DNA of 64,000 bases from Sphagnum compactum (Eukaryota), in NCBI GenBank assembly GCA_965153455.1, contig OZ234494.1, positions 124,001 through 188,000 of the forward strand. Reading direction: 5' to 3'. The position numbers were made by a program, and so were the translations under genes. The notes under the pieces were generated by a model, which did not search any database, was not told the origin of the DNA, and saw only the letters and a list, made by a program, of their open reading frames with translations. Every line of letters begins with the position of its first letter. Position 1 is the first letter of the stretch. Below are positions 2,592 through 39,300 of the stretch, one piece after another.

Positions 2592-3250
2592 CTAAACTCG
2601 TCTTCTACATCTATGGTCCCGCTCCAGCATTCGGATGCATGCATCCGCCAACCGTGTGAAGTTGGTAACGGACCGGTCAAAGGCGTTCAGTCCCATCCAT
2701 CGAGCCAACTCTTAGTTGCGAATGATGTTCATCAATTTCGGCATGGCCTTGCGCACGTCCGATGGGTTGCGACGCCAAACGGCCCAAAGAAGAATTCGGT
2801 ATCGTTCGCCTCGGATCTGACCCGGGCAATCGACACCGTACCTTCCTTCGTGCAACGGGACGTTGCCCAACGCCTGCCCGTTGTGCGAAAGGTGGCACTT
2901 GGGACAAACGTCGGGTGACCGGGGAATGGAATTACGACAATCCGACCTAGGATGCGATCCCAGACATTTGAAGCATCAACGACCGTCTAGCAACAACGGA
3001 CAATTTTGGCTGGGGTGACGCACGTTTCCATCACCGCCGTAAACTTAACACAGGAGACAATCGGGTTTTTCGGGAGCAGCGAATCGACGAAAATTCGTCA
3101 GGGCTGCGCGATCCTCGTTCACGAAAGAGGTGAGCGCCGTGCCATGCGCACTGAACATCGGCAACGGCGGGGGGGGTTGCTGGGACACCGCTCGCGATTG
3201 CCGCAGACAGTTGTCGCAAGGTTGTGCGGCGGGAATCAGGCTGCACCTGT
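2592..3250 (-). pseudogene. 3' end of a RecQ/telomere-linked-helicase-like gene (RecQ Zn motif plus Cys-rich tail)
   Basis: Manual minus-strand translation gives CSLIPAAQPCDNCLRQ...KPDCLLC*...HPSQNCP...*CFKCLGSHPRSDC...VCPKCHL..., with in-frame stops. Its GC-rich composition resembles 15282-17920. Confidence 0.6.
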
Positions 3251-3372
3251 TTTTTCATTGTGGAGTGGCTAGGGACAGGGGGGAACATGAAAGGGTTTTT
3301 TTTTTTTAATATGTTGAAGGGGGATGGGAGGGAGTTTTTTTTCTATGTTGAAAAGGGATGAGAGGGGTTTTT
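3250..3372 (-). repeat. Dispersed repeat, inverted copy of ~34200-34320
   Basis: Reverse complement (cccctctcatcccttttcaacatagaaaa...ctccctcccatcccccttcaacata...tgtccctagccactccacaatgaaaaaac) is nearly identical to 34200-34318. Confidence 0.85.
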
Positions 3373-5119: not shown

Positions 5120-6123
5120 TGACGCACTCCCAAGTTCCTAGTGGACCCACTTGAGGGTCCAAGTATGTGGCAATGCGGAAGGAGTTGGAACTTGGAGCAC
5201 GCTCCCGACTTCTAGCACTAGAGGGGGGTGAGAGGGGTGTGCTAGAAGTCCCGGGATAGACTAGGAAGAATTGATAAGCTTATTCATTCACACGGGCCTG
5301 CACACAACCCACACAAAGTGGTTAGTGCATAGTTGGAGCACCTTTGGTGCTAGGACGAGCCACGGGCAACACGGACACAGAAGACTCACCACGGCCCGGA
5401 CTTGGGGGAAGCCACCACCTTCCCCCTTATAGTATACTCTGCAGCTCTCCACGGAGGCTACATCCAAATGGCTATTTTTCCCGGGACTCCCGAGTGGGAG
5501 TCCCGAAATCGCGCCAAATGGGACTCCCGCGACTTTGGAGCCCCATAACTTTGCGAGCAGACCTCGGATCGCGATGCAATCTAAAGCAAAGTTGTAGATC
5601 TCGTCGAGACCTTTCCAACGGTATGTCGCACGTCCTCTGCAGCCCAGTATTTCGGGTCGATTCCCGACTTTTAGTGGTCGGGAGTCAAACTGGCAGTTCG
5701 ACTCTCGACCCTTCTTTTGGCCATAACTTGTGTTTCAGAGATCCAAATGAGCAATGCGAGCCCATTTTAGATATCTACGTTTCAAGAGCTTTTCAATGAT
5801 ATAAAGAACGCCACAAGACGTTGAGGTTGTACCCCTGCAATTGCTCTCTGAAGTTTTGGGAGTCCACCGGGACTCCATCTCTTCAAGTGGGAGTTGCCTT
5901 GGGAGTGTGAGAGTTCACTCCCTCATACTCCCTCACACTTTCTAACACTCCCGGGAGTATGTGATGTGACTCCCGGGCTTCCTCTTGCCTTAACTCCCGG
6001 GCTTCCTCTTGGCCCGCATTCTTGCAATGCCTTTGCCTTGACTCCCGGGTTTCTTTCCTTTTTGGCCCGCAACCTTGCAACCCCCTTAGCCTTGGTCGCG
6101 AGCCCAAAGCTAGGGTTGCGACA
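5120..6123 (-). mobile_element. Solo LTR (related family) inserted in LINE ORF1
   Basis: Minus-strand termini TGTCGCAACCC...GAGTGCGTCA. Flanks TGGAT (5115-5119) and CGGAT (6124-6128) form a 5-bp TSD with one transition. Shares blocks with the 8322-9141 LTR. Confidence 0.9.
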
Positions 6124-8321
6124 CGGATCGTACACCCATCAGTACCTCGAAAAGGAGATTCTTCCCATCCCCGCAAGTCAGAAGTTCATTCTGTATCTGT
6201 TGGTCATGGAAGAAGCTCGGAGGGCTTGGACATCGCCGCTGCCAGGCAATCGAAGAGGATCGACCTCTCTGAGGCCAGGGCAAAGGCGCCAAGAATGAGG
6301 AACTCGTTGCGAAAGAATGTGACAAGCTCAGTGAACGCCCCCTCGCCCCATTCTCTGATCGTGCAACCAGGCAACGGGACAAGTGCCGCTTCCCCCGAAG
6401 AGGAAGCGGCCCAAGGCCCATCGCCAATAGATTATAGCATGGAAATAGAGGCAGATTTTCCAACAGACTTAGTGGTAGAGATGTAAGAAAGCGCGACGAA
6501 GAAAGCCAGAAGAACTATTATCGGTAGAACGCTTGGAGGCAGAGCAACATTCAAAGCACTGCTCGACTGCCTCAAGCTCCATCTCCCGGCCCCTTTCAAC
6601 TCAGTATCCCACGTCACAAGAGGATACTTCGAAATACTATTCGAGAACGAGGAAGGGGCCAAGGCCACCAGAAGACTGGCAGCAGTCGAATGGAGCGGCC
6701 TGGGCCTCTCCTTCTCTCGCTACATCCCAAATTTCGACTCAAGCTCGCAGGGGGCAGAAGCCCAACTCACACACGCGATCAAGGTCCGATTCCCTGATCT
6801 GCACGAGCAGTTCAGGAACACAAGGGCCCTGACGATCATGGCGAGTAAAATCCGGGAAGTCCTGGAAATAGAAGCTGAAGACTCCTACATCAAAAGGCCA
6901 GCGAGGCCCATGATCACCATCGAGCTCACGGATATCTCCAAGCTACCCGGATTCATTCGAATTCCGTCCATGGCGGAAGGATCAAAGCCCAGTGACACTG
7001 TGGCACAAAGACTCTTGTATTCCGGCCTGCCAAACCAGTGCAGAAAGTGTAGGAGGTTCGGCCATCATGCACGGGCCTGCACGATCAATAGGAGCAAACC
7101 GTGGGAGGGGGCGCCAGCATATCCGCCCACAAACTCTAGGAGATCAGAAGGAAAGGAGCCAGGGGGGAGAGGAATTCCCCAGCCGAACCAAGCCCAGGCC
7201 AGCAAACGACTCCAAACCCAGGGGAGGAGGAATCAAGAGCAAACCAAGGTGACTCAGAACCAAAAGGAAGATAGCAAACACGCGGATCACCCTGCTCAGA
7301 GAAACATCACCAATACCTCCGCAATTCCGCCCAACGCAGAGGCAGCAACACGGAATCGATGCCCAAAGGCCACTTCAGGGACATCGGAATCCGATCAAGA
7401 AATGAAGGAAGCTTCTGAGCTGTCAGCCCAGCCCGACAGCGAAGCCAAGACCTGTGTGGAACTCCTAGAAGAAGGGCGACAAAAATTGGACGCCATTCGG
7501 AATTACACACCAAATTTTGGAATTCAGGAACCGGCCAGCTCTCCGGCCCCGGACCCAGCCGCTCAGTCCAACCCTTTCGCTATTCTAGGAGATGACAACA
7601 GAGGAGCCGAGTCTCTAATGGAAACGCAGGAGGATTTGAAAGAGGGCTGGTCCTTCCAAGGTCGCAAGAGATTCGACCCGAAACAGACCCCACCTCGGCC
7701 AAGTATGCAACACCATTCTCCAACCCACGTCCCAACACAGGACTACACGCCAGGAAGCAGAAGGAAGAGAACCCGCTCAGAGGTTCACAACTCCTTCTTT
7801 ACCTCGCTGGGCATCCCGGTCCCCCCGGGACAAGAACACGCCAGGGCAAGAGTCTGGCCGGTCCTATCCAGGGAGAGGGATAACTAGAAGGAGATTCTGG
7901 TCAACGTAAAAAGCAACGACCCGCCAAACCTCGCACTCCACATCAGATACATGAGTGCACCTGAAGAGAAATGGACTCCGGCGTCCGCCCTCGAGGACCT
8001 ATCCAGGAACGTCGAGACTGAGCTCGAGGGAAAGATTCTCAGATTCAGTCTAAGCCTCAAGGGGCGCCTCGCCCTGGAATGGAGCTAGCAAGAAGACCAT
8101 GCCAAGGGAGGCTGGGAATGCACGATCCTAGCCCACATCAGCACTGGCCTCAGTGGCATCAGTGCACAAAAAAGAAAGAACCTCCACTGGAGGACGCTTG
8201 AATCTATGCCGAGCATGAACAATGATGTGGTCTTCACAGGCCCGGCACACAGCCTTCTGCTGAAGACTGGTCCCGCATGCATGGATCGTCAAATGCGCAA
8301 AAGCGTGTCCGCCAGTTTACT

Positions 8322-9141
8322 TGTCGCAACCCCACTTTGTCCAAGTGTGAGGGTGAAGCCCAACACTTGGAAAAGTGGGAGGTTTGGAGTCCTCCGGGAC
8401 TCCCGAATGTTCAGAGCTCGACAGCAAGGGGCAAAACACCTCGCATTGGAGTGTTCTTGGTGTCATTGAAAAGGTCTTGAAACGTAGATATCGAAAATGG
8501 CCTCGCATTGGCCATTTGGACATCTGCAGCCCAAGTTATGGGCAAAAGAAGGGCCGGGAGTCAAACTGGCAGTTTGACTCTCGACCACTAAAAGTCGGGA
8601 ATCGACCCTTTGCCGACGTCGCCTCAGGGAGTGCGACATGGCGTTGGAAAGATCTTGACGAGGGCTACAACTTTGGTTCAGACCTCGTTGCGATTGGACT
8701 TCGGAATCGGGAGTTATGACCGTTCAAAGTCCCGGGAATCCCGCCGGGACAATTTCGGGACTCCATTTTGGGAGTCCCAACAAAATGTGCCATTTGGATG
8801 TAGCCTCCGTGGTGAGCCGCAGAGATAACTATAAGGGGGAAGGTGGTGGCTTCCCCCAAGTCCGGGCCGTGGTGAGTCAAGTAGTCCGAAGTGCCCGTGG
8901 CTTGTCCCAACACCCAAGGGTGTTCCCGAATGTGAACTAACCCATTTGTGGTTGGTTTTGGATGCAGATTTGTGCGTGATCTACTAGTCCATCTTCCTAG
9001 TCTAATCCCAGGGCTTCCAACTCGACCCTCTACCCCTTTCTAGAGTTGGAAGTCGGGAGCGTGCCATTGGGTCCCCACTTTCCGCAACTTCACATTGGTG
9101 AACCCTCAAGTGGGTTCACCCCGGGACCAAGGAGCGCGTCA
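8322..9141 (+). repeat. 5' LTR
   Basis: TGTCGCAACCCCAC...GGAGCGCGTCA. About 21 substitutions versus 14462-15281 by manual count. Confidence 0.95.
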
Positions 9142-9143
9142 CG

Positions 9144-9155
9144 TGGTATCAGAGC
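9144..9155 (+). promoter_or_regulatory. Primer binding site complementary to tRNA-iMet
   Basis: TGGTATCAGAGC, 2 nt after the 5' LTR. Confidence 0.95.
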
Positions 9156-9184
9156 TCAAGGTGAAGCTCAACGACATTTTTGGG

Positions 9185-12100
9185 ATGGCACCCAAGAAGA
9201 ACCGGAAGCTAGCCCCAGAGCCTAGGTCCGAGGAGCCTGTCGATGACCTAGTAGCCCCGCCCGAATCGATTGGGGAGGAACCAAACTTCCGGGAGGACCA
9301 AGATGAGCCTGAGGTTGAACCCGAGAGTGAGGAAGAACAACGGAGCTCGGTCCTATTCACCCCAGAGCAACTTGAAGTCCTCCTCAAGATGAATAGGCCC
9401 GACTTTGGTGAGTTGGTGGCGGCCCTCAAAACGGGGGCCTCCAAAGGTGAAAGGTTTCAACCGGCCAAGCCCGGGAATTTCGATGGTGCCCGAGACCGTA
9501 AGGTGGTGGATGCTTGGCTTGCGGAAATGGATGATTATATCCATGCCACCAAGGTTGGACGGAATTCCGCCGTGGAGCTTGCCCAATCCTACTTGAAAGG
9601 CTATGCCGCCACATGGTGGCGGACGGTGAGACAAGAGGAGGGCAAGAACCATGGCTATATGTGGGAGTTTTTCAAGGATCGCATTGAGGCGGAGTTCATT
9701 CCGAGAAATTCCGATTACATTTCTAGGTGCAAACTCCGCGACCTTGTGAATGCCACAAATGAAAATTTGAGGCAATATGTGAGAGCCTATTCCGAACTCA
9801 TGTTGGAGATCCGGCACATGCACGAGTTGGATCGTGTGTGTCAATTCGTGATGGGACTTCCGACTTGGGCCAAGCGAAAGCTTGAGGAGAGTTGGCCTGC
9901 CTCATTATCCGAGGCCATCACGAAAGTGGAGAACTTCTCGGATGTGGGGCGGAGCGACAAATCCGGGTTCAAGAAGGACAACAAGTTCCTTCACAAAAAG
10001 CCGAGGCACGAGGGGGAATGGAACCGGGGACAAGGTAGCCCAACCAAGGATAAGCCAAAACAATTCCAAGGCTCGGGGTTCAAGCCAAAAGGTAGCTTCG
10101 TGAAAAAAGGGGCTCCTTTCAAAGGGAGCCAAACCAAGGGAGACTTTGGAGCAAAGCCCAAGGGTGCATGTTTCAATTGCAACGAGGTGGGGCATTACTC
10201 CAAAGATTGTCCCAAATCCAAAACGAGGGTTGGGAGCTCTAAGGTACTTGCTCTCAATGCCACTTTAGCCCAACCGGAATGCAATCGACTTATATTCTTG
10301 AAAGGGAAGATTGCTAAACGAGAAATCTTATGTCTTTTGGACACAGGGGCCTCCCACAACTTCATAACTCGGGAGGGCGCCGAAAGGATGGAGCTCCACT
10401 TGGAGGAGCTCAAGGCACCCATTGAGGTGCATTTCGCGGATGGGGTTCCCCATCCAACTACACTACAAGCAAAGGGAGTGCCTCTCCAATTGGGAAATTG
10501 GAGAGGAAAGGTGGATTTGTTGGTTTCCACCTTGGGTGGAATGGATTGCGTTCTCGGAATGGAGTTCATCACCCAAAACAATGTGCTCATAGACGGGCAC
10601 AATAGGTTGGTTAGAATCCCATCTAAAAGTGGGATTGTGCGAGTTAAGGCACATGAGTTGCCTTGTGTGGGTGGTTCAACCATCCACTTCATGTTAGGAA
10701 AAGCTTGGGAAAGAGAATGCGTGGGGGGTTTCGGCATGATGTGTGTCATGCGGGTGTTGGACGAATATGAGCCCAAGGAAGCCACCAAGTTGGTGACTTC
10801 CGCCAAGTGCATAAAGCAAGTCTTACAAGAGTTCCCGGATGTGATGCCCGAAGAGTTGCCCGAAGACTTGCCCCCGAGAAGACGCGTTGATCATGCGATT
10901 GAAGTGATACCGGGAGTGGAACCGCCCGCCAAGGCCCCATATAGAATGAGCCACGAGGAGTTGAAGGAACTCAAGGTTCAACTTGAGGAACTCCTCGCGA
11001 AAGGTTACATCAAACCAAGCAAGTCACCATATGGGGCACCCGTCCTTTTTGTTCACAAGAAGGATGGGACTTTGAGGATGTGTGTGGATTATAGAGCACT
11101 CAATAAGGCAACGGTGAAAAACCGTTATCCTTTACCTCGCATCGATGATCTATTTGACCGTCTCTCGGGAGCCAAGGTTTTTAGTAGAATTGATCTACGT
11201 TCGGGATATTACCAAATAAGGATCGCGGAAGGGGACGAAGAAAAGACCGCTTGTCGCACAAGGTATGGGTCATACGAGTTCTTGGTGATGCCCTTTGGGC
11301 TCACCAATGCACCCGCAACATTTTGCACCCTCATGAATGACATTTTCCGCGAATGGCTTGATGATTTTGTGGTCGTCTACATAGACGACATTTGGATTTA
11401 TAGTAGCTCCATGGAGGAGCATGCGGAGCACCTTCGCAAGGTGTTCCAAAGGCTAAGGGAAAATAAGTTGTATGCCAAGCTCGAGAAATGCGAATTTGGG
11501 GTGACGGAAGTGGATTTCCTTGGGCATAGGATAACTCAAGATGGTTTGATGATGGATGATCACAAGGTCAAGGCGATTTTGGATTGGGAGCCGCCTAACT
11601 CGGTTCCCGCCTTGAGATCCTTTTTAGGATTGGCCTCCTATTATCGCAAGTTCATAAAGAACTTTGCGAGAATAGCGGCCCCTTTGACAAACCTCTTGAA
11701 GAAGTCCGCCGTCACTTATGATTGGGATGAAGCATGCGACGAAGCCTTTGGAACGTTGAAGGGCATTTTGGTGAAGGCGCCGGTGTTGAAGTTGCCCGAC
11801 TTTGACAAGGAATTTGAAATCCATTCCGACGCCTCCGACTTTGCAATTGGGGGTGTCATAGTGCAAGATGGAAGACCGGTGGCCTTTGAAAGCAAGAAGT
11901 TGAGTGAGATGGAGCGAAGGTGGCCAACTCACGAGAAGGAAATGTGGGCGGTCATACATTGTCTCAAGACTTGGGGCCATTACATAGGCTCCAAAGATGT
12001 GGTGGTGTGGACCGATAATGTGACCTTGAAGTACTTCGCAACTCAACCCAAGTTGTCATCAAAACAACAAAGGTGGCAAGACACATTGGCCTTGTTCAAT

Positions 12101-13683
12101 GTGGACATCCGTCACAAGCCGGGAAAGGAGAACATAGTCCCCGATGCTTTGAGCCGGAAACACCAACTTAGAGTGGTGTATGTGGGAGAGTCTGAACTTC
12201 AAAAGGAAGTTAGATTAGCAAACCGCCGGGATGCTTTTGCCAAGGAGGTAAGGCAAAGCATCCAAAATGGAGCCAAGTCCCACTTCCACTTGAAAAATGG
12301 ATTGTTGTGGTACAAGCAAAACCGACTCTATGTGCCGGAGGGCAAAATTAGGGACACACTTTTGAAGGAATGTCACGATGGACCGCTTGCGGGCCATGGT
12401 GGTGCAAAGCGCACCACAACATTCCTAAAGAAGTCCTACTATTGGCCCAACTTGAAGGATGATGCGGAGGAGTACGTGAAGACTTGTTTAACTTGTCAAC
12501 AAAACCGGACCCTCAACAAAACCGGACCCTCAACAAGAAGCAAGCGGGTTTGTTGCAACCTTTGCCAATTCCCGAAGGGCCGTGGGAAAGTGTGTCAATG
12601 GACTTTATGGTAAGTTTGCCCCCTTCAAAGGGGTTCGATGCCATCATGGTTGTGGTGGATCGGTTTAGCAAAATGGCACACTTCATTCCCACAAAGGATG
12701 AAGCCACGGCTCAAGAGACGGGGAGGTTGTTCTTCTCCCACATTTTCAAGCATCACGGCCTTCCAAAAGACATAGTGTCGGATCGGGATCCAAAGTTCAC
12801 GAGTAAGTTTTGGAGGGCTTTGTGGAAGCGAATGGGGTCGGAACTCAAAATGAGCACTTCATTCCGCCCTCAAACCGATGGACAAACCGAGAGGGTGAAC
12901 TTGGTGATCCAATAATTCCTAAGGAATTATGTGGCGGCGGATCAACAAGATTGGGTGGATCATTTGGAGTTAGCCGAATTTTGTTACAATAACTCGGTAC
13001 ACTCCGCAACGGGATCCACCCCATTCCAAATGGTGACGGGCAAGTCACCAATTGTGCCCATGACTTGGGCCGCACAAGGACAACCTTCGATTGATGCAAG
13101 TGAGGAAGTGCCAATGGTCACACAACTTGATGAAGAAAGAAAGCGCTTGTGGGAGTTGGCAAAAGCCAACTTGGAAAAGGCGCACAAAAGGTACAAAGAT
13201 TTTGCGGACAAGTCCCGACGAGAGGTGAAGTTTCAAGAAGGAGACGAGGTGTGGTTGAACATAAAGAACTTCCGGTTGCCCGAAGGGTTAAGTCATAAGT
13301 TTATGGGCCCATATGCGGGTCCATTCAAAGTGTTGGAAAAGAAACTTTCCGACACTTATAAGTTAGAATTACCGGAAAATCTTAGAGTTCATCCCACATT
13401 TCATGTTTCCCTTTTGAAGCCGGTCTCCCGCGACGCCTCAAGGCCTAATAGAGAGCATCACTCAAGGCCTCCACCGGACTTGGTTCATAATGAACCCGAG
13501 TTTGAGGTAGAGGCCGTGCTCAAATCAAGGCAACTTAGAGGGCGAGAGCGGGAATACTTAGTTAAGTGGAAAGGCTACCATGCAATAGAGGCTTCTTGGG
13601 TGAATGAATCCGACATGGAACATGCCCAAGAAGCCATAGAAGAATTCCACACTAGATCGGCGAAGAAAAGACGTAGAACGTGA
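9185..13683 (+). pseudogene. Gag-Pol polyprotein with C-terminal chromodomain; one frameshift and one nonsense mutation
   Basis: Motifs: [14 protein letters not shown] (CCHC), [10 protein letters not shown] (protease), YIDD (RT), SDASD (RNase H), HDG..GH...C..C and SMDF (integrase), GPY/GPF, EFEVEAVL..EYLVKWKGY (chromo). A 17-bp tandem duplication at 12497-12530 shifts the frame; TAA at 12913-12915. Confidence 0.95.
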
Positions 13684-14449
13684 TGAGGACATCACCTTTC
13701 TTTTAGAGGGGGAGAATTTCATAAAATGTACCACATCAAGTTGCAAGTGAAATAAAAAGGGCTTTAAAACTTCCAAGAGATTGTATCATGAAAAATTTGT
13801 TAAGGCAAATAGGGTTGTGGCATGGACAAATAGAACTCTCTTGCGTAGGCCCAAATCAAAATCGGACTCCTACTGTGGGGTTGAGGAAACTTGGCCCCAA
13901 AAGAGGAGGCAAGCAAGGTGAGCTTGCGGGGACATGCACATGCCTTAAGTGCATCCCAAAGGGTTGGTTGGTAGTGTGGCCAACGCGGGAAGTCATGACC
14001 CCGCTCGCATACTTTAAGTGTAGTTTGGGACTTGGGTTTGGCAAACCTAAATATCCTTTCTCGTACCTTGATAAGCAAATCTTTTAGTTAAGACTTGGTT
14101 GTTGTGACCAAGGCGCGAGATAGGGAAAGGAGTCATGTCAAGTAGCTTAGGTCAAGAGTAGACTTGACTTAAGTCCTCATGAAGGGAAGGATGGAAAAAG
14201 GTTCCTCCCAAATGAGGGCTTCGTCAATTAGGCTAGTTTAGTCTTTTGACGAAGCAAAGAAAGAGGGTTCCCTACAAGACCCTCTTGGACTTGTCATGAA
14301 AGTGTTGGAAACTTGGGGACGCCTAAGTTAGCTTGAGACAAGGTCCGAGCCGCAAGAGTCGTCAAATGGCCAAGGATCCAAAAGAAAGCAATTGCAATTG
14401 TATGAAGGAAAATTCTAAGTGTCAATGAGGACATTGACCTCTTTCTTCT

Positions 14450-14461
14450 AGTGGGGGAGAG
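14450..14461 (+). promoter_or_regulatory. Polypurine tract
   Basis: AGTGGGGGAGAG immediately before the 3' LTR TG. Confidence 0.9.
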
Positions 14462-15281
14462 TGTCGCAACCCCACCTTGTCCAAGTGTGGGGGTGAAGCC
14501 CAACACTTGGAAAAGTTGGAGGTTTGGAGTCCTCCGGGACTCCTGAATGTTCAGAGCTCGACAGCAAGGCCCAAAACACCTCGCATTGGAGTGTTCTTGG
14601 TGTCATTGGAAAGGTCTTGAAACGTAGATATCGAAAATGGCCTCGCATTGACCATTTGGACATCTGCAGCCCAAGTTATGGGCAAAAGAAGGGCCGGGAG
14701 TCAAACTGGCAGTTTGACTCCCGACCACTAAAAGTCGGGAATCGACCCTTTTCCGACGTCGCCTCAGGGAGTGCGACATGGCGTTGAAAAGATCTCGACG
14801 AGGGCTACAACTTTGGTTCAGACCTCGTTGCGATTGGATTTCGGAATCGGGAGTTATGACCGTTCAAAGTCCCGAGAGTCCCGCCGGGACAATTTCGGGA
14901 CTCCATTTCGGGAGTCCCAACAAAATGTGCCATTTGGATGTAGCCTCCGTGGTGAGCCGCAGAGATAACTATAAGGGGGAAGGTGGTGGCTTCCCCCAAG
15001 TCCAGGCCGTGGTGAGTCAAGTAGTCCGAAGTGCCCGTGGCTTGTCCCAACACCCAAGGGTGTTCCCGAATGTGAACTAACCCATTTGTGGTTGGTTTTG
15101 GATGCAGATTTGTGCATGATCTACTAGTCCATCTTCCTAGTCTAATCCCGGGGCTTCCAATTCGACCCTCTACCCCTTTCTAGAGTTGGAAGTCGGGAGC
15201 GTGCCCTTGGGTCCCCACTTTCCGCAACTTCACATTGGTGAACCCTCAAGTGGGTTCACCCCGGGACCAAGGAGCGCGTCA
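14462..15281 (+). repeat. 3' LTR
   Basis: Direct repeat of 8322-9141. Confidence 0.95.
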
Positions 15282-17920
15282 TAGCACCACCGAAGTAAGC
15301 GGCCAGTGACGATAATCCGCGATCCCCAGATCGAGATTTGCGCGCTCGAGGAACGCCGTGGCCATCAAACGGGAAACATCTTCGTCGTCCATGGCGACAT
15401 CTCGTTCAATGGCCCAAAGGTCCATGTGTTGTCGGGCTGCGTCAATATTTCCGCGCAAACCCGTGTGAAGGATTGCACCGGCCTCACCAGCAACATATAT
15501 TCGATGAAGAGCGAATTGAGTTCCGGGGGTAGGAAACGGGGTATTAGTTTGACTGGCCGCCCTGTGTTGGCGCCCTTGTGGTATCTCTGGAAGGTCATGA
15601 TGGTGCCCGCGGACCAATAAAATGTCCTTTCGGAATGCTCTGTGTTGCGAAGGAGGTAGCTCCTGTACTCCTCGCCGCGAGGAGGACCGCCGGCGGTGAA
15701 ATGCATGAGCAAAAATAACAACGCGTGCATACGATCCGCCGCCTTGGCCCACATCGCCAAAGCATTCTGATTCCATGCGATGGATCGGTCGCCTTCTGTG
15801 CCTTTGACGAAAAGACCTCGGGTACGCCGATCGCTAAAAAGGTGGATGGCAAGATCTTGTCCGTGACGATGAAATTTGTTACGGGCATCTGACAAGAAAG
15901 AATACCCGACTTCGTCTTCGTTCGCCTTGTCCGCGACGTTACCCTCCGCTATCACCCGGCCGATCCAGGTTGTCTGGAGTCCTAGCAACAATTGGTTTCT
16001 CATCACCCGATTTGCCTCGCGGAGCAGTTTACCGACCAGGTTTAGTAAAGTGTCGATGGTGACGGCTTGACCATCGATCGTGCACGCCATGGGACCGATC
16101 CGAACGAGTCTTGGGATGCAGGGTTCGTCGCCCGACACCGCCCCCGCGAGGCGCATGGTCTCCCGCAGTCTACTGAACGGTGTGTCCTTGGCACTCTCAC
16201 GAACGCAAGCGAGCCACTCATCGGTTTCGCACCACGGGATGGGGGGGTGATCGGGCTGCCACATCGGACGCACCAGCTGCATGAGGATCGTGCATCTCCA
16301 CCAATACTGGAGAATGGCTATGGGACCCGACACGCGTCGAACGTGTTCGAAAGCAAGGTTGTTCGACGAAGGGTCCGACTTCAGGCTGTTCACGATCATG
16401 AACCTGATTATCGGACAACCGGTTTGGAGCCCATGTTGAACGACCGGACACGTTAGCGATCTGCAAATGTGGAGCAACATCGTGTGGATGGGAACGAGAT
16501 CTTCGTCATCCCCGTCCGCGTCTCGTCGACTTCGCATGTGAGAGATGAGATTCTCCAGCGCATCTCCGAGATCCAAATGCAAATCGCCCAGAACGTTGAC
16601 GAATGGCTCGTCATCCACTGGGGCGCTGTCCCTGGATTGGACCATCATAGTGAGCAGCTTGGTCATCAACGTACAATATCTGGTTATGGTGGATGGCACC
16701 CAAAGCTGTTTGAGCCCCACCGCGGCCAGGGGGGAATCTACCACTGAGACGACCAACCGCCTGAGATGGTATGGCACACGACCGATCATGGCCTGCGCAT
16801 TCTCCAAATACGCTCAAACCATCGAAGGCAAACGATCCAAATTGGATTCCCCGCCGATTGGGTTCGGAAGCACGCTCGCTCGCTTGATGCGGTCCAACGG
16901 CATACCTTCCGGAATGATGTGGTTGACGGCGAGCTCGTGCCAACGAGACACTCTCAGCCATGGACTCAATTCACGAATGGATGGATTTGGTGCCGCGTTC
17001 CGCACGGAACATTGGTGGGCCTGTAACGAAACGTGCACATGCTCCTTCAGATGGAGCCCTGCTGGATCGCCTTCGAGCTCCACATTTTGGTGGTCCACAC
17101 CAAAATACGCGGTGTACCCGACCTTTTTGAAAAGGCGCTGCACCTGACACGGTTGACCGTTGGCATGAACCGGTAAGAAGAAATGTTTGGCCCGACGATG
17201 ATTGCCCATAATCTTCTTGGTGGCGGAATAGTATGCACATCCTTCCGCCTCGCATCGATATCCTTTCACAACCTTTATCCCTGGGACCACCGGCAAAAGC
17301 TCCTGCCGTGGAGATGTGGTATACCTTTCCAGGCGAGGGTCTTGCAACTGGGTGAACTCGATCTCGTCGAACGACGATGCGAAATCCGTAACAGGTGGGA
17401 TCCCAGTCACGCGACGGAGGCTACCGTTGCAATGTCGTTTGGGAGCTCTCCAATTGTCGTGCCCCAATAAGTGGTTATGCACACGGCGAGCCTCGGGCTC
17501 GAGACAGACGTCGCAAACCCTGCACAACAGGAGACGAATGCCATCCGCAATGTTGAGAACCGCAAGGCCCACATCACGGAGCAATTCCGGTGTTTGTTCG
17601 ATGGGCGGCTGGATTAACATGCCCAGGGACATTGCCCTAATTTGCGCGTCGTTGTCGTCAAGATCTTGATTTAGGGCGGAATCGCTCTGTTCCGCATGTC
17701 GCACTTTGAAATGGCCCTGGAGCTTGTCACTGCGTTCAAATGTGCTCTTGCAGCCCTCCACGAGGCAAGGATATTTGCCGTCGATCGATCGATTGACAGT
17801 AATTCCACCGGTGGTGGTACGGATCTTACAAGCTGTTCGATGCACCGATCGGCGATGTCCATCGCGTTGATGAGAAGCGGCGAAACAAATGTCACACTCG
17901 GGGCATCGGAAGTCGGCCAT
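15282..17920 (-). pseudogene. 5' part of a fungal-type C2H2 / DUF3505 / YR-like RecQ (telomere-linked helicase family) gene, truncated by LTR
   Basis: Intronless GC-rich ORFs 16814-17920 and 15365-16807 are in frame and separated by one TGA. Motifs: two C2H2 fingers, LLLCRVC..H.H, GYRC..C..H..H, CQVQRLF..YFGV, SPWL..SRW, LMHFTAGGPPRGEE, RYHKG..IPRFLP..YMLLVRP, then a frameshift to LGIADYRH. Confidence 0.7.
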
Positions 17921-18089
17921 GAATATCGGTTGGTAATCGACAGATGTTTAGAGAAGGCATAAGAGTTGTGATCGACAATGTCTTAGGGCAAAACACGAAT
18001 GACTCGAGCCCAGTCAAACCAACCTGCAACCTGTAACCATAGGAAAATGCAGTTCTGATTTCAATGTACGCATTGATTTTCCCGAACAG

Positions 18090-20944: not shown

Positions 20945-22870
20945 CATAAAAAGCATTTCTTGATTTATTTTGTGATGCGGCTTGGGTTGTTCCAGACAAA
21001 TTCATATTAAATACCTCTTGTATGGTATAGATTTTTAATTTTACAAGCATATTTTCTCCCTTTTCTTCGAGTTATTTATTAATTTCCCCGGGAGAAAAGT
21101 TTGTCAACCCTAAACCCTGAAGCAAGATTTGTGGATGGGGCAGTGGTGGGTGTTGGGTCATTCAAGCCCGGGAAACAAAAAAAAAAACCCGGGAAATTTC
21201 ATAAGGCACGATTTTCTTTTCCCATTCAATCAAGCAATGAACATCCTCTGGAAGGCACGAGTCCTACAATACTCCTGCTAAAAAATGATGCAAATGATGA
21301 CGATCTTCAAACGAAATACCTCTTTACACAACATTAAATATTTATACCTGGTTAAATATATTCGTAAAACATAAATAGACAAAAAGAATCCCTAAGGGGT
21401 TCCCATGTATTTTTCAAAAATTTGAGGGGTCTCATAAAGCGGACTCTGGGCTCTCCGCGTTTACATTCGTTCGCTGAGGGAAAAAGTTCAACGATTTTAA
21501 CCGCTGGTAAAAAAAAAGACATCTTAACAAAATGAATGATTCGAGCGACGGAAAATCGAATAAGAAGAGGGCGAAAATGAGTGAGGCTTGACGAAAAATA
21601 ACAGAAGGCGACCATTCGCAAGTAGAAGAGGGAAGAGGGGGGGGCACGGCAGGGTAGGTTTAGGCTTTATATTTCTTTAGTTTCTTTTTCGGGCAACCAC
21701 GTGATTGGCCTACTCAGTATGTGTAGTTATGTACATACTACTGCCTACTTGCCAAAACCCTAAACCCTAAAACCTAGGATTTGTTTTATTGCCAATTTTG
21801 CACCTGAAATATATGGTTTCAAATTTCAACCTATTTGAAGGATTTTTCATGGAAAATAAATGGTCCCAAATTGGCCAAACTTTGTGGTAAAAAAAAGTTT
21901 ATAAAACACTGGCCAAACTTTTATGATAAGTTGTATTAGGTAGCCAATAATATTCCTTGCACAACATTAAATATTGATACCCTGTTAAACGTATTCACAA
22001 AGCATAAATAGACCCAAAAAAATCCTTGGGTGGTCCACATGTATATCTGAAACATTTGAGGGGTCCAATAAAGCGGACTTCAATAAACAATTCTTGATTC
22101 ATTTTGTGATACGGCTCAAGGTTCTCCATACAAATCCATATTATATACCTCTTTGATGGTAAAGGTTTTCAATTTGATAAGCATTGTTTTATCCATTTTC
22201 TGCGAGCTATTCTTTAATTTCCCCAGGAGAAAAGTTCGTCCACCCTGAATCCTAAAACGAGATTTGTGGCTGCTGCGCCGGTGGGTGTTGGGTCATTCAC
22301 GCCCAGGAAAATAAAAGGGGGGAAATTTTATACGGCACGAATTTTTTTTTCCTGTTTAATCAAGCAATGAACATCCTTGGTGGGCAGGAATCCTGCAATA
22401 CTCCTACTCTAAAAAGATGCAAATGATTACGATCCCAAAACAAAATATGTCCTTGCACAACATTAAATATTTATACCCTATTAAATATATTCACAAAACA
22501 TAAACAGACAAAAAAATAAAAATCCTTGGGTGGTCCACATGTATACCCGAAACATTTGAGGGGTCCAATAAAGCAGACTTTAAAAAATAATTCTTGATTA
22601 ATTTTGTGATACGGCTAAAGTTCTTCCATACAAATCCATATTATATACCTCTTTGATAATTATGTTTTATCCATTTTCTCCGACCCGTTCTTTAATTTCC
22701 CCAGGAGAAAAGTTTGTCCACCTTGAACCCTAAAACAAGATTTGTGGCTTGTGTGCCGGTGGGTGTTGGGTCATTCAAGCCCATGAAAAAAAAGGGGGGG
22801 AAATTTTATATGGCACAAATGTTTTTTCCTGTTTAACCAAGCAATGAACATCCTTGGTGGGCAGGAGTGA
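20945..22870 (+). repeat. Degenerate ~480-bp tandem repeat (about 3-4 copies, first one interrupted)
   Basis: aatttcccc(g/a)ggagaaaagtt..ggtgggtgttgggtcattca recurs at ~21081, 22216 and 22694. acaacattaaata recurs at ~21327, 21961 and 22456. Confidence 0.8.
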
Positions 22871-31446: not shown

Positions 31447-32741
31447 GTGAGTCCCCACATTCCCCTATCACTGTCCTCAACCTTTCTGCATCTTTCTTGA
31501 TTAAACAGGCCTTTATTTGTTGGTCAATTGCAACCCCATCTCTTCCAATTCTCCCTCGTTGTTGTATATGAAACCTTGTTGTTGTTCTCTGTCTCTGGTT
31601 ATCTGGTTGTAAGCCTGGTATAGGCAACAAACTACATCCTCCCTCTTTCTGTCTGCTTGTTATGGGCACCTGTGCAGGAGATCTTGTATTATGCAAAGAC
31701 GACAATTGATTGGACATTGCGAAGCTGTGTCTATTTGTAAAGTTTGCCCTGCATATCTTTCTGTAGGAGTCACTCTGAAGCCATGTCTGTTGATGGCTAC
31801 CATGATGGGGAAACACTGTCTTTTGATGCCTTTTGGTTCACATGGTTGGATTTCTGTGTGAATGAGTGACCAGGTTATCTTGTGAACCAGTGTTGTAGTT
31901 TGGAAACTGTCTGCTGTATTGCAATGTGACTCCAGTTTTAATACTTCTTAATGTCGTCTTTCAGAACTAAACCCTGTTTTTATTCTGTTATTGGCCGTTT
32001 CCATGCTTGTTGCCCTCACGGAGTCTTCTAGAGAGAATAGAGCTAGACATTCATAATGTGCTCATGGGTTTGTTTTGTGTTTTGCTTCTGATAGTGCGTC
32101 AATGCAATGGAAAGGGTGAGAGCATTAAGAAAGTAGGAATCCATGAACTTGCACCACAGGTTTCTTGCCCAAATTTCCTTTCCACCCTCCATGCTCCTTC
32201 TCAAAAAACTTCCCAGTTTCTGAAAACCTTCCATCTCAGAAACTTGTTGGTTGGTGGCCTCTAGTTCCTGCTTTCACTGAGAGTTGATGTGCATGTTCCA
32301 ATCTAGCTTATGCCAATCCTCCGGAAGCAGTGTTAGCTCTGAAAAGTTGTTGTCAAGATAGTGTTGTTGCTCTTGTAGTCATTACTTTCTGACTACAGTC
32401 CAAGATGGAAAACAGGTGGTGGCGTTCTTTCGCGGAGTCTTTGATACTTGTGTATTACAGGACAATGTGTCCGAAATAGTCGAGGAAGGTGAACCTTATT
32501 CTCCTCGAGCTGCACTGGTTCTAAAATGCCGAAGTACCGGCATTTGTGAGATCGGGTGAGTATTTGTGAAACAAAACGAGGAGTTATATCTTCTTCCCTT
32601 TCTTTTATGTTCTTTCTAGAGAGTCCGCGAGTTCTTAGAAGTACATCGTGGCAATGACCTTTGCTTTGTCTTTCGAAGTCCTTGTAAATGTCCATAAATG
32701 CTTGTAAATGCTGTGTGAATGTTTGTGTGCACATGATTCTT

Positions 32742-33598
32742 GGTTTGTTCTTAATCTCATAGTTATCTTATTGCATTCACTGGTTGGTTGTCATGGTCGT
32801 CGGATGATCTTTTTTTTATAAGGATTAATTCTAGGAATCCATTTCAAGAGAAGCTGGATTACATGCACAATCTGTGAGGTTATTCGGGGAGGCCCCATGA
32901 ACATTGTTTTTGAGCTGTTTGGTTAGGCAATGTTTGTGGGGGCCGGGTTCTACTCGGTGCTCGCTGGTGATTCGGTCGGCTAATTGGTCACCGAATTGTT
33001 GGCGAACTCTTTTCTGCTGACCTCGATGCATGTAATTTAGTCACACTAAATCGATGCTCTGCTGAAATGGATTCCTGGAATTTTGTTGGACTTGTAAATG
33101 CCATGGGAATGCGTGTGTGTGTATGATTCCAGGTTTGTTCTTAATCTCATGGTTATCTTATTGCATTCACTGGTTGGTTGTCATGGTCGTCGGATGATCT
33201 TTTTTTTATAAGGATTAATTCTAGGAATCCATTTCAAGAGGAGCTGGATTACATGCACAATCTGTGAGGTTATTCGGGGAGGCCCCATGAACATTGTTTT
33301 TGAGCTGTTTGGTTAGGCAATGTTTGTGGGGGCCGGGTTTTACTCGGTGCTCGTTGGTGATTCGGTCGGCTGATTGGTCACTGAATTGTTGGCAAGCTCT
33401 CTTCTATTAACCTCGGTGCATGTAATTTAGTCACACTAAATCAATGCTTTACTAAAATGGATTCCTGGAATTTTGTCGGACCTGTAAATGCCATGTGAAT
33501 GTCTGTGAATGTCTTGTTCTTAATTTCATAATTATGTTATTGCATTTATTGGTTGGTCGTCACATTTGCCGGAAAAGAAATTTTTATAAGGAATAATA
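32742..33598 (+). repeat. ~390-bp tandem repeat, 2 near-identical copies plus a partial third
   Basis: ggtttgttcttaatctcat..ttattgcattcactggttggttgtcatggtcgtcgg at 32742 and 33132, with a degenerate start at ~33515. Confidence 0.9.
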
Positions 33599-34099
33599 TA
33601 TAATGAAAGACGTTGAGATGAAATGATCCTTTCCATCCATCCGTCCGTCCCATCGTCCATCCGTCCATCCCTTCATCCATCAATTTACATTAAATGGCGA
33701 CTGTCCTAGGCGGACAATAGAGTTTTTTTGTATATAATTACAACAGTGTCTGTGCGTCCGACGACGGTTCCGCGTTTTAATGGACTGGTGGAAAATTGGA
33801 TTCGGAAAACGGGATTCGGAAAAACGGGCGGCCAGACAGGGCAGGGTGGGGCAGGGGGCAGGGCAGGGTCTGTCTGTCCGTCTGTCTTGCAGGGCAGGGG
33901 GCAGGGCCGTGCGGGAAGGGCAGGGGCCAAATAAAGAGTAAAAGATAAGGAAAAATAAAAGGGCGGGCAGGGCAGGGCAGGGGCCAAATAAAAAGTAAAA
34001 GATAAGAAAAAATAAAACGTATAAAACTTCACAGTGGCCCAAGGTCACGGGCACCCACGGGGGACTTCAAGGTGGCCATCGGCCACGGGCACCCACTAG
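33599..34099 (+). mobile_element. Non-autonomous Helitron-like element
   Basis: 3' hairpin GTGGCC-ATC-GGCCAC followed by GGGCACCCA-CTAG|T. The interior has TCCA/TCCG and GGGCA simple repeats. Confidence 0.55.
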
Positions 34100-34124
34100 T
34101 AAGGAATAATAATCTAGAAATCTA

Positions 34125-35150
34125 TTTTCATCCCTTTTCAACATAGAAAAAAAAAAAAAACTCCCTCCCATCCCTTTTCAACATAGAAAAAAAAAAAAAA
34201 CCCCCTCTCATCCCTTTTCAACATAGAAAATAAACTCCCTCCCATCCCCCTTCAACATATTTATAAAAAAAACCCTTTCAAGTTCCCCTTGTCCCTAGCC
34301 ACTCCACAATGAAAAAACAAAATTTTAAAAAAAAAATCATCCCTTTCCCTTTCCCTTCCTCCTTCCACATGTCAAATGAAGGCAAAAAAAAACATTAACC
34401 TCCACCCCCCTCCCCCTCAACAGTAAAAAAAAGAAGAAAAAAAATCAACCTGCACCCTTTCCCCTGTCCCATAATGAATTTGTAAAAAAAAATTACCCCC
34501 GGTGAACCCCTCCTTCGAAGAAAACATTTCTAGAAACCCTAAATGTACCCCTTTCCCCCCTCCTCCTTCCACCTTTTCATACATCTGGGGAAAAGAAAAA
34601 CATTTCCAAATAAAAAATGTACCCCTTTTCCCCCTCCTCCTTCCACATTTCCAATGAAGGGAAAAAAAAAACATTCACCTCCACCCCCCTCCTCTTTACA
34701 ATAAAAAAAAGAAGAAAAAAAATCAACCTGCACCCTTTCAAGTTCCCCCGTCGCACAATGAATAGAACCCTTCACCCTGGCCCTTCTCAACAATAAAAAG
34801 TAATTTATCAAAGTTACAACCAGTAAAAAAATAACAAAAAGTAACAAAACTTACCCCTTTCAACAGTAAAAAGTAACTTACAAAACTTACCACCAGTAAA
34901 AAAAAGTAACAAAAAATGAAATAAGTCAACAAAAACAGCCACAGCATTACACTAAAACAGCCGAGCACCGCTTCCTTTTTTTCCTGGTCAAACAGCCACC
35001 AGCCACCGGCACTACATTCGTAATGCCCGGATCATACCTTAAGGCAAAAAAAAACATTAACCTCCACCCCCCTCCCCCTCAACAATAAAAAAAAAAAAAG
35101 AAAAAAAATCAACCTACACCCTTTCTCCCATCCCATAATGAATTTTGAAA
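34125..35150 (+). repeat. Degenerate array of C-tract/A-tract subrepeats
   Basis: Repeated catcccttttcaacatagaaaa, aaaaaaacattaacctccacccccc and aaaaaaatcaacctgcaccc modules. Confidence 0.75.
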
Positions 35151-36311: not shown

Positions 36312-39300
36312 TCAAACATTAAAGAAATCCAAGAAATACAAGGGTGGCAAGAAGCACCACACGATGGTGATGCAATCAACCCCAAAGATGCCTAAGTGGC
36401 ACCATTCCGCCTTAAAGGCTTGCTCAATCCTATCTTGAATACTAGGGTCCCGGGAGGATCGAAGGGAATTAATGGCCTTCCAAGTGGCCATTCCAACCTC
36501 AACGGTAGCAACCCAGGCTTGTTGAAGGATTTTCCTAGAGGAATATTGGTTATCAAAATGCTTCCGGCATCTCTCTGTCCAAAGAAAGTAGAGGATAAAA
36601 CTGCGAAGGATGTCAAGCGGTTGTCTGATGTAGGAGAAGCCTCCTACATGGTACCCTTGGACTCCAGGGGGGTCATCTTCTCTCTTGAAGACAGCTTCAC
36701 CAAGCATGACGAAAGGCCAGGAAAGAATGATGTCATTGGGCGCTCCCCATTTTTGCCATATGTGATAGAAGGCCTCCCAAGCCCGTTTGGCGCGGGGACA
36801 CTCAAGGAGACAGTGTTGAGGGGATTCAGGGGCCTCCTCAGTGCAAACCTTGCACGTGGGGAGGATCCCCATGCATTGTAACCATGTGCCAACCGGGAGA
36901 CCCCGGTTTAAAGTGAGCCATATGAGAGTGCCAACCTTCCGGGGTCGGGCGTTATGCCAGATTCTGGCAATAACTTGCGTAACGGTGGAGTTTTGCAAGT
37001 TTAACCTTTGAATGAAGGAGCAGATGTTGGCGCTATGGGTGGGTTTCCTTGCATTTCGGTAGCCCCACTTTACGGAATAGTCGAAAAAAGGAGAGTCGCC
37101 CATTTGTGAGGAGGCTTGCGAGTGCCACTCTCCTGGGTCCCAGGGAAGCCCATCAATGAAACCGGATTCGAAAATCCAAAATATGGGAAGCTTGGTGAGT
37201 GATGGGAACTCTCAGGCAACTTTATATGGGGCTCCGTGTCTTTCTTGAAAGAGGACCCTGATTGGGTGATAACCTTCAGGGGAAAGGGTTATCACTTGGG
37301 AGTTCGTAGCTCTAATGAGACCAGTGGGGGTAACCCTCTGGAATTCATTGGCTTGCACCGTGTTGGGGGTGACCGCGGTTACATGGTATATCCATTCTAG
37401 AGTGGTGTTGTTTCCGGAGTTTCTTTTGCTGATCCAGTCCCCTGCCTGAAAGCGGTTAGTGTAAGTTGCAGGATTCCATGGGATGCTCGCTATGATGATT
37501 TCTCTGTTGTTCCTGTTGGTGGCGTGGTAGGTCAACCGAAGGGCTTGGAGGCTTTTCCATGCCCTGCCCTCCTGGTCCCCAAGATCTTTGATTCGGGTGC
37601 AGCCAGAATTCGCAATGGCTCGTCCTTCATTGCGACCACTCACTCCCAGAGGGTGACCAGTCATGTTGAGGATGAGAGGGTTGCTGAAAATAGGTTGTCT
37701 GAGAACCTCCGCATGGGATGTGGGTTCAGACTTTGCTAGACCAACTCTTACGTTGAGCCAAGAGCCAAGGATGTTCTTCCAAAATGAGCATTTCAATTTT
37801 TTGAGCTTGGGGGCGGCAAAAAGTCAATTTATATCCGAGATGCTTGGCCCTTTGCCGTGCACCGAGAGATGGACTTGATCTGTTCGATGCCTTAGGATCT
37901 CTTTCCAGGGTTCTCCTCCTGGGGCAAGACCTCTCACTAAAAGTTTGGCAAGAAGTGCTTCAGATTGTGCCTTGGGGTCTATTATCCCTAGACAAGGGAA
38001 GTGTAAGAGAATCCCATTTGACCTTGGCCCGTGTATTAGAAGCCTTTCCCCCCCAAATGAAGTTTCGTACCACTCCTCTGATCTGGTTGCACATACTCGG
38101 ATTGGGGTTCCAACAGGCTGCCATATACCACATTGAGGAAAGCAATACTTGGTTGGCAACAAGAATTCTACCAGCGAGAGAGAGGTTGCACTTGCCCCAG
38201 GTGATCATCTTCCCTTTTAGGGTGAGCATGAGTTTTTCAAAATTGGCCTCGATAGGTAACCGAAAGCCTATTTGGATGCCTAAGTATCGAACCCCTTGTC
38301 CTTCAGGGATCCATCTCAGCCCAACTTCTTGTCCCCATTCCCATTCCTTTTTTTCCTTGCTGGCCCATATGGCCGCAGATTTTCCCCAATTGATTTTTGC
38401 CCCAGAAGCAAGACAGAAAAGTTCAAGTACTGCCCGAGCTTTGTTTAAGTTACTTGGGGATCCCTTAAGGTAAACTGCGGTGTCATCCGCGAAAGTTTGA
38501 TCCCGGACGCATCCCCCTTTGGGGAGGTGCATTCCCTCTATTTCGTGCTTTGGGTCGTCCAGCATATGGCCCAGAACATCCATAGCAAGAATGAACAGGT
38601 ATGGAACTAGTGGACAGCCTTGTCGGACTGACCTGGCGAGTCTGAAGTCCTCTCCAGGTTCCCCATTTACTTTAACTGATGAGGACGCGAGCCAATAGAG
38701 GGATGAGATCCATTGAATCCAGGTGGGGCAGAAACCTAGTTTGGACAAAGTTGGGAAGAGGAAGTCCCATTCAATCCTGTCATATGCTTTTTCAAAATCG
38801 AGGAGTAGGAGGACAAGGTCTTGACCGCTTTCTGGTGCCCAGACCAGAGCCTCTTGAGCCAGGAAGTTATTGTCTAGAATGTTTCTTCCTTCTACAAAAC
38901 CGGTTTGGTTTGGTCTGATCACGAGAGGAAGGAATTCTTGGATTCTTCTAGCTAAAGTTTTGGCAAGGATCTTGTATATGCTTCCCAAAAGTGTGATTGG
39001 GCGCCAATTCCCCAGTTTTGAGTGCTCCCCTGACTTGGGAATTAGGGTGATCATGCCCTTGTTAATGTATTCTGAGGTCAATCCCCGTGCTAACATGGCC
39101 TTGAAAGCTAGTAGTAGCGTGGGGGCTACCTCATTCACATATTCTTGAAAGAATTCTGTTGGGATTCCATCGTGCCTTGGGGCCTTGCCTTTGGGGAGCA
39201 AGGTGATGGCTTCCGTGATTTCTGCTAGGGATAAGGATCGGGTCATGTTGGCGTTCATGGCCTCCGTGACCCGAGTGGGGACGCTCTCCCAACATCTCTC

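Follow-up and report, generated by a model that had tools for sequence, protein, structure and literature searches.

We analysed a 64,000-nucleotide stretch of the peat moss Sphagnum compactum (contig OZ234494.1, positions 124,001 to 188,000; hereafter the 64-kb window, numbered from its first letter), in which positions 15282 to 17920 hold, on the minus strand, part of a telomere-linked RecQ helicase (TLH)-type open reading frame (ORF), a type best known from the chromosome ends of fungi. Its similarity to TLH-type relatives is far beyond chance (E = 0, 74–94% identity), and we conclude that this ORF part is probably a degenerate 5′ portion of a TLH-type element, belonging to a multi-copy, diverged moss family with a recombinase-type TLH domain. 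The main interest lies in this domain, whose conserved residues form what appears, from sequence comparison, to be a recombinase-like active-site pattern, found here in an unexpected host and position and amounting to a testable hypothesis.

The reading frame starts with an ATG at 17920 and continues through two ORFs (17947-16814 and 16813-15365) that are split only by a TGA codon. The motifs listed in a preliminary description of this DNA (zinc fingers, a DUF3505 region, SPWL..W, HFTAGGPPRGEE, YHK, IPRFLP and ADYRH in a GC-rich, intronless frame) were all recovered, and the main ones are placed as follows:

15282..17920, minus strand: pseudogene made of about 640 codons from the 5′ end of a TLH-type ORF (tblastn with Sphagnum-type proteins, 74–94% identity)
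17840..17920, minus strand: start codon and first C2H2-like finger (the same Met starts the relatives P0004 and P0200)
17696..17773, minus strand: second C2H2-like finger (Cys/His pattern only)
17183..17539, minus strand: OrsD/DUF3505 zinc domain, PF12013 (Pfam, residues 137-255 of ORF 17947-16814)
16966-16940, minus strand: SPWL..W motif (sequence)
15668..15703, minus strand: HFTAGGPPRGEE, the putative box I, carrying Arg-I and the R+3 Glu (family conservation; XerD profile block score)
15572..15583, minus strand: YHKG, with the proposed beta-hairpin Lys (K in 161/163 family sequences)
15544-15527, minus strand: IPRFLP motif (sequence)
15306..15323, minus strand: IADYRH, with the proposed Arg-II (R in 147/151 family sequences)

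The PF12013 match in the first ORF reached 40.6 bits (E 3.8e-10) against a cut-off of 26.6, and a third C2H2-like finger (17260-17183, minus strand) lies within this domain. Since all C2H2 Pfam models scored under their cut-offs on the first ORF (best 21 bits vs 27), the fingers were assigned from the visible Cys/His pattern; no Pfam family covered any part of the second ORF (482 amino acids, aa) in the same scan. By tblastn, residues 3-835 of a full-length relative (P0155) aligned to 17878-15428, and the first two-thirds or so of the TLH domain are kept in the window, up to ...YRHLAAYFGGA. The G+C content of this 5′ part is 0.551, vs 0.442 for the whole window.

With the read-through protein as query (the TGA given as X), 13 proteins were found among 7499 candidates. 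Ten of them were fragments with 74–94% identity, those named among them coming from Sphagnum balticum and S. troendelagicum; the other three were a 1097-aa protein of the liverwort Calypogeia fissa (36% identity), which carries DEAD and Helicase_C domains, and two from the fungi Coprinopsis (P0013) and Athelia (P0014), at 22–24% identity. No relatives longer than these were found among 3641 candidates, and a second search, with the liverwort protein as query, yielded just that protein and one from Pisolithus. The ten Sphagnum-type clusters at 90% identity had 1–46 members each, the named ones lying on contigs of 15.9–19.4 Mb in S. balticum (two), S. jensenii and S. troendelagicum. What Sphagnum holds, then, is many diverged, fragmentary copies on several contigs of chromosome size, and not a single-copy, vertically inherited plant gene.

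A family profile built from four members, two of them basidiomycetes, was searched against 1.84 billion representatives and matched 5157 clusters at E ≤ 1e-3, of which 3347 also passed a cut-off of 1e-10 and 1063 one of 1e-30; because half of the profile rows were basidiomycete, the list of the best 150 leans to that group. In a first look-up, nine of ten top representatives or their cluster members were named fungal proteins, two of them annotated as "ATP-dependent DNA helicase tlh1/tlh2". Of 20 representatives looked up, 10 yielded an organism name (their own or a cluster member's), in every case fungal: Suillus, Flammula, Grifola, Gloeophyllum, Arthromyces, Galerina, Agrocybe, Hypsizygus, Leucocoprinus and Stygiomarasmius, which we take to be Agaricomycetes (mushroom-forming fungi). 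The commonest phylum of the nearest clusters in a protein-language-model look-up was Ascomycota. Together with the OrsD and RecQ-type architecture of the relatives, these names bear out the assignment to a fungal TLH-type family made in the preliminary description.

That architecture was read with Pfam from full-length relatives, which have OrsD, a region of about 600 aa that no Pfam family matches, DEAD, Helicase_C and a tail of about 300 aa; in P0155 (1654 aa), OrsD covers residues 186-255, DEAD 1049-1199 and Helicase_C 1251-1350. The P0155 helicase agrees best with RecQ models (NCBIfam recQ_fam, E 4e-42), yet under the curated cut-off. The helicase is present in the Sphagnum-type P0009, where the TLH domain is joined to DEAD and Helicase_C, and in P0222, as well as in P0010 and P0155, and it was found in 60 of the 150 top representatives (the best 150 of 5157). 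In the relatives, a median of 145 aa separates the Tyr of the TLH domain from the helicase-profile match that follows; among the 78 representatives that bear the Tyr and no helicase, 60 stop fewer than 150 aa downstream of the Tyr and just one runs on for at least 400 aa, and therefore TLH domain and helicase belong together. The R...K...R(H) series is the conserved core of the family, and in intact relatives GH-x8-Y follows it. An intact copy encodes one protein of about 1650 aa, with C2H2 fingers and OrsD, a helical region, a TLH domain of about 200–250 aa, a RecQ-type helicase and a Cys-rich tail. In the accessible portions of two preprints, TLH proteins are defined by two N-terminal C2H2 motifs and a TLH domain of about 250 residues just upstream of the helicase (10.1101/2024.02.27.582403; 10.1101/2022.03.07.483234), and by its position and size the domain studied here should be this published TLH domain. 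The first of these preprints, in the same portions, states that TLH function is undetermined and also reports TLH genes from a choanoflagellate (10.1101/2024.02.27.582403).

The copy in the window is damaged at several points, and a second piece of TLH-type sequence lies beyond a retrotransposon that cuts the ORF:

16814..16816, minus strand: in-frame TGA stop (Arg at this site in 28/28 stored Sphagnum-type proteins that span it)
15462..15466, minus strand: 1-nt deletion (frameshift) within the TLH domain (homology changes frame between 15467 and 15461)
15282..15305, minus strand: second 1-nt frameshift, directly after the His codon (~15305), followed by LAAYFGGA, the last family residues (third-frame homology)
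8322..15281, plus strand: Ty3/gypsy chromovirus truncating the TLH-type ORF (long terminal repeats, LTRs, and Pfam matches on its ORFs)
2631..3245, minus strand: Cys-rich 3′ tail piece from a TLH-type ORF, a single frame that holds three in-frame stops (similarity to P0155)

The stop likely arose by a CGA>TGA change at a CpG. Of the "one stop and one frameshift" first counted in this frame, the stop (16816-16814) stands, while the frameshifts number two (~15464 and ~15305), the end of the frame, LAAYFGGA, matching residues 143-154 of P0012 and 536-547 of P0222. The reading frame stops at 15282 because the 3′ LTR of the chromovirus cuts it there, the right LTR abutting the last TLH-type codon at 15281/15282. 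Arg-I, the Glu, the Lys and Arg-II are kept in the window copy; of the putative catalytic residues, GH...Y does not occur within 15282-17920, and similarity searches with the relatives found no helicase-coding segment anywhere in the 64-kb window. The RecQ core is missing because the copy is truncated, which reflects damage and not membership in another family. With a stop, two frameshifts, a truncation, no His/Tyr motif and no helicase, the window copy is a dead fragment without function. At the protein level it differs by 14–26% from other Sphagnum copies.

The tail piece matched residues 1414-1648 of P0155 at 26% identity (E 8e-7 against the window), and its first 16 residues are 100% identical to the end of P0009 (aa 705-720). 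Its G+C content (0.567) is near that of the 5′ part, and the two could represent opposite ends of a single original copy. Bordering the tail piece, the segment 3248-3373 recurs at 34319-34196 (93.7%), and another repeat family ends at the upstream edge of the tail.

We then considered what kind of domain the TLH domain is. Conservation was counted in a hidden Markov model alignment of 170 stored sequences, fragments included, in the numbering of P0003. R511 was present in 156/161 sequences, E514 in 159/161, K545 in 161/163, R634 in 147/151, H660 in 148/150 and Y669 in 148/150, and R, K, R, H and Y occurred all together in 137/170 (the full invariance seen in a further alignment, A3, arises because its 79 rows were chosen for having these residues). 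The residues are spaced R-34-K-89-R-26-H-9-Y, and their local contexts resemble recombinase boxes (G.P.RG.E, Y.K....K.IP, Y....RP,.RH..a.f and.GHs..t....Y). Downstream of the proposed Lys, a K-[LV]-I-P-H motif has His at P0003 residue 558 in 134/162 sequences and Arg in the Sphagnum type; that this His might stand in for the missing second catalytic His (His-II) is pure speculation.

Because the standard tools were silent, we wrote a register test of our own, in which five ungapped blocks around the invariant residues were compared with a recombinase profile at every offset and the best collinear chain was found by dynamic programming, blind to the active site of the target and with within-block column shuffles as the null. 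On a XerD profile of 79 sequences (E. coli XerD and 78/80 loci), the chain paired R511 with R148, E514 with E151, K545 with K172, R634 with R247, H660 with H270 and Y669 with Y279; its score of 9.8 compared with −13.9 ± 4.5 for the shuffles (z 5.3, reached by 0/300) and −22.2 for the reversed target. The box-I block taken singly ranked first of all offsets on this profile (z 5.35), at R148/E151. On a lambda-Int-family profile of 12 phage integrases, four of the five blocks fell on R212, K235, R311 and H333/Y342 (z 4.1, 0/300 shuffles), and in the reciprocal test, with XerD blocks run over the 555-column family profile, the same five family blocks were found (z 3.6, 0/200). As controls, 120 random block sets gave none at z 5 (maximum 4.72) and five at z 4, and unrelated target profiles gave z values of 1.7 and 0.4. 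The residue numbers of the catalytic sets of XerD, lambda Int and Cre are those we take to be the accepted ones; the corresponding motifs can be seen in these sequences. Furthermore, the local alignment that hhalign itself made to the lambda-Int profile (150 columns, at a probability of 1.25%) paired all five residues, and the protein-language-model neighbours of residues 480-681, a lead only at scores of 0.85–0.87, were Phage_integrase, NDC10_II, DUF3435 and ResT-TelK_cat, all of which we take to be recombinase-type families.

Set against this are several results that weigh on the other side. No Pfam recombinase family matched at E ≤ 10, either in 6 proteins or in 59; PHROGs integrases were matched by 0/12 proteins, the NCBIfam recombinase models gave no match, and a family profile search returned no chain of the Protein Data Bank at E ≤ 10. 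The hhalign probabilities were 0.09% for Cre, 0.6% for the XerD profile and 1.25% (E 0.042) for the lambda-family profile, and the 5% obtained with lambda Int alone belonged to the wrong region. On single sequences, the chain test was insignificant (z −0.3 for Cre; z 0.8 for lambda Int, where 56/300 shuffles did as well), and on the lambda profile block B2 was misplaced and block C out of register. The blocks had been chosen around the invariant residues after the resemblance was noticed, and the statistic is home-made. Lastly, His-II is absent, the position three residues before Arg-II (R-3) being N, S, R, A or Q where canonical recombinases have His; the pentad is R-K-H-R-Y, with R, K, His-II, R, His- or Trp-III and Tyr as the catalytic order (PMC10104507). 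As a separate candidate, the GYSF..RN motif was compared with the arm-binding region of lambda Int (the 5% hhalign match) and rejected, since its distance to Arg-I did not fit.

The same points speak for an alternative in which the copy is a dead TLH fragment and its TLH domain has no recombinase nature. The R-E-K-R-H-Y series would then be a chance or convergent likeness, the domain would serve in DNA binding or helicase loading, and subtelomeric recombination and segmental duplication alone would account for the spread of the family. The standard homology tools are all negative or insignificant for a recombinase, His-II is missing, the single-sequence chain tests are insignificant, and the TLH literature, in the parts accessible, lists the TLH domain with no enzymatic assignment. 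This account has to explain, however, why the recombinase set and the box-I Glu are the only near-invariant polar residues of the TLH domain, why two independent recombinase-family profiles, the reciprocal test and the hhalign pairing all arrive at the same register, why the His-to-Tyr spacing is 9, as in XerD and lambda Int, and why the named protein-language-model matches all come from recombinase-type families; we regard it as rather unlikely. The tyrosine-recombinase reading put forward in the preliminary description thus gains from conservation, from two register tests, from the reciprocal test and from the hhalign pairing, and loses from the lack of a significant standard-tool match and of His-II. 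Judged from sequence, the TLH domain is quite probably a very divergent catalytic domain of the tyrosine-recombinase/topoisomerase-IB type, with Arg-I, Glu, Lys, Arg-II, His-III and Tyr and without His-II. The data establish family membership, domain order, residue conservation, the in-register correspondence to recombinase motifs and the damage to the window copy, while fold, catalysis, mobility and origin are inferred.

Compared with XerC/D, lambda Int, Cre and Flp, the TLH domain has a collinear R(xxE)...K...R(H)...GH-x8-Y series with spacing like that of XerD and lambda Int; unlike these tyrosine recombinases, it gives no significant profile match, has His-II replaced by N, S, R, A or Q and is fused to a helicase. 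In the related topoisomerase IB and telomere resolvases, too, no His is known at the His-II position. Cryptons and Starship captains (DUF3435) are eukaryotic, recombinase-encoding DNA transposons of fungi; if the recombinase reading is right, TLH would be comparable, as a eukaryotic, mostly fungal element with a recombinase-type domain in its own protein, and DUF3435 is among the protein-language-model neighbours at 0.85, a lead only. Unlike the TLH domain, Cryptons and captains keep the R-K-H-R-Y pentad, in the parts of the literature available (PMC10104507 among it). Pfam DUF3435 had no match in the 6 or the 59 family proteins, and no helicase is mentioned in the Crypton literature examined. 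Helitrons, with a tyrosine-based DNA-cutting domain and a helicase in one protein, offer a working analogy; the Helitron helicase is of Pif1 type, and the code DHX is, we assume, that of Helitrons in the Wicker classification of transposable elements. TLH-bearing repeats of Colletotrichum have been classified automatically as "DHX", according to the accessible part of the report (PMC5576322). Unlike Helitrons, TLH proteins have a RecQ-type helicase of superfamily 2, and Pfam found no HUH Rep domain in the full-length relatives.

Fungal TLH genes (Magnaporthe TLH1, S. pombe tlh1/tlh2, and those of Ustilago, Fusarium, Botrytis and the Colletotrichum repeats) have the same domain order and, in the portions of the literature available, are described as multi-copy, many of them truncated or interrupted by transposons, like the Sphagnum copies. 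They sit at chromosome ends in many fungi, as TLH genes also do in a choanoflagellate. All 24 subtelomeres of Colletotrichum higginsianum are reported, in the excerpt at hand, to hold repeats with helicase and DUF3505 (PMC5576322), and Fusarium subtelomeres are described, in the extracts available, as adjoined by genes with DEAD, Helicase_C and DUF3505. Unlike its fungal counterparts, the window copy lies in a plant, at an interstitial, repeat-rich site with no telomere array in 64 kb (one 21-nt match with two mismatches, at 21751-21771, was all that was found); its protein is only 22–24% identical to those of Coprinopsis and Athelia and falls in a separate, bryophyte-containing clade.

If the recombinase reading holds, the zinc fingers would choose the DNA site, the Tyr would cut and rejoin DNA through a covalent 3′-phosphotyrosine, and the fused 3′-5′ helicase would unwind the cut DNA; the three activities together might let the unit copy or move itself, the destination in fungi being chromosome ends. 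We advance only tentatively the wider proposal that the TLH domain, known since 2009, is an active recombinase minus His-II, that TLH units are not host helicase genes but form a large, undescribed mobile superfamily of recombinase plus RecQ helicase homing to fungal chromosome ends, and that one lineage reached bryophyte genomes (Sphagnum and a liverwort), where it proliferated at interstitial positions. Transposition is plausible, yet we saw no element ends, target-site duplications or excision products within the 64-kb window and no intact Sphagnum copy (the longest listed Sphagnum-type protein has 872 aa), and the fungal family is usually treated as a host gene, TLHs being called host genes in a 2025 paper, as far as its accessible text goes (PMC12857005); these points, too, count against the mobile-element interpretation. 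DNA upstream of the ATG and DNA beyond the tail had no inverted or direct repeats in common, sharing only chance 10-11-mers, and the window holds no second TLH copy beyond one 5′ fragment and one tail piece. The Sphagnum TLH family is apparently dead.

In a search of freely accessible articles, we found no literature linking tyrosine recombinases with TLH and none linking Sphagnum, RecQ and a fungal origin; the word "recombinase" does not appear in the Fusarium TLH preprint (10.1101/2024.02.27.582403). If correct, a recombinase-type site would give TLH proteins a testable mechanism, covalent cutting and rejoining beside the helicase, and thousands of clusters would be reclassified as self-mobilising elements or chromosome-end-processing enzymes. 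The peat-moss relatives extend the host range of TLH to plants, and the Sphagnum copies provide a setting in which the passage of mobile DNA from fungi to bryophytes can be studied.

The origin of the moss copies was approached with trees (FastTree on 157 rows, 13 rows with <70% of columns filled being left out; IQ-TREE on 55 chosen rows). One clade, supported at 100 (SH-aLRT), brought together three proteins from Sphagnum, the one from Calypogeia, P0135 and P0155, and this bryophyte-containing clade lay outside the 151 other representatives, not nested among them. Bryophyte monophyly was not rejected (P value of the approximately unbiased test, p-AU, 0.81), in a region of the tree where long branches meet. 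These results, with the choanoflagellate TLH genes reported in the accessible part of the 2024 preprint (10.1101/2024.02.27.582403), speak for a family that is old in eukaryotes and was inherited vertically into bryophytes and lost in most plants, with no transfer from fungi. The named records point the other way, since the only plants among them are Sphagnum species and one Calypogeia protein, against thousands of other clusters whose named representatives are all fungal, as far as names go for 20 family representatives and 10 Sphagnum-type clusters and with a best-150 list biased to basidiomycetes. The copy also has an intronless ORF, a G+C content of 0.55 and a CpG observed/expected ratio of 1.15 in the 5′ part (15282-17947) and 1.25 in the tail piece (2610-3254), vs 0.54–0.70 in the surrounding plant repeats (retrotransposon 0.70, L1-type element 0.54; whole window 0.62). 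Old vertical inheritance is, in our judgement, unlikely, and taxon spread, intronless ORF and composition are compatible with entry from a fungal or other external source, transfer from fungi being plausible. The absence of CpG depletion in both TLH-type pieces perhaps reflects recent arrival, escape from methylation or a donor-like composition.

A fungal-type family, an atypical base composition and the many near relatives from environmental contigs might also suggest fungal contamination or a chimeric assembly. Such an artefact is highly improbable: an LTR cuts the ORF with single-base precision, its partner LTR and further pieces of related LTRs occur at other places in the window, which also carries an L1-type element with a zf-RVT domain, and the named relatives are on Sphagnum contigs of 15.9–19.4 Mb in three species.

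The chromovirus that truncates the ORF looks complete. Its LTRs (8322-9141 and 14462-15281) are 97.4% identical over 820 nt and have TG..CA ends, and directly after the left LTR comes tggtatcagagc, which we read as the customary primer-binding site for tRNA-Met. Pfam recognised gag, protease, reverse transcriptase, RNase H, integrase and a chromodomain, in a long gag-pol ORF (9044-12613) followed by integrase and chromodomain ORFs. The 5-bp flanks of the two LTRs differ (ttact vs tagca), so that there is no target-site duplication, and no remainder of the TLH ORF was found to the left of the retrotransposon (8321). Because the flanks differ and the ORF does not continue, the chromovirus is probably a recombinant of two insertions, with the middle of the TLH element lost. 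Related LTR pieces occur in inverted orientation at 5141-5886 (75% identity) and at 42042-42807 (98.9% over 282 nt at 42042-42323).

Elsewhere in the window, a 466-aa ORF between the two TLH pieces (6487-7887, plus strand) had weak zinc-knuckle and DUF4283 matches (E 0.04–0.1) and is perhaps a gag-like gene of another plant retroelement. The L1-type long interspersed nuclear element (36312-42139, minus strand) has endonuclease, reverse transcriptase and plant-type zf-RVT in consecutive ORFs. No tRNA genes or Rfam families were found in the window. A CHAT (caspase-like) domain extends over two ORFs (52155-52739, E 3e-13; 52815-53480, E 1e-29) within 49133-55622 (plus strand), and is surrounded by long ORFs (421, 313 and 645 aa) for which no family match was obtained; together they may represent one large broken gene. 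Finally, a 390-bp tandem repeat (2.1 copies) lies at 32701-33501, adjoined by a region (34001-35000) with a G–C skew of −0.52 and a 40-bp repeat.

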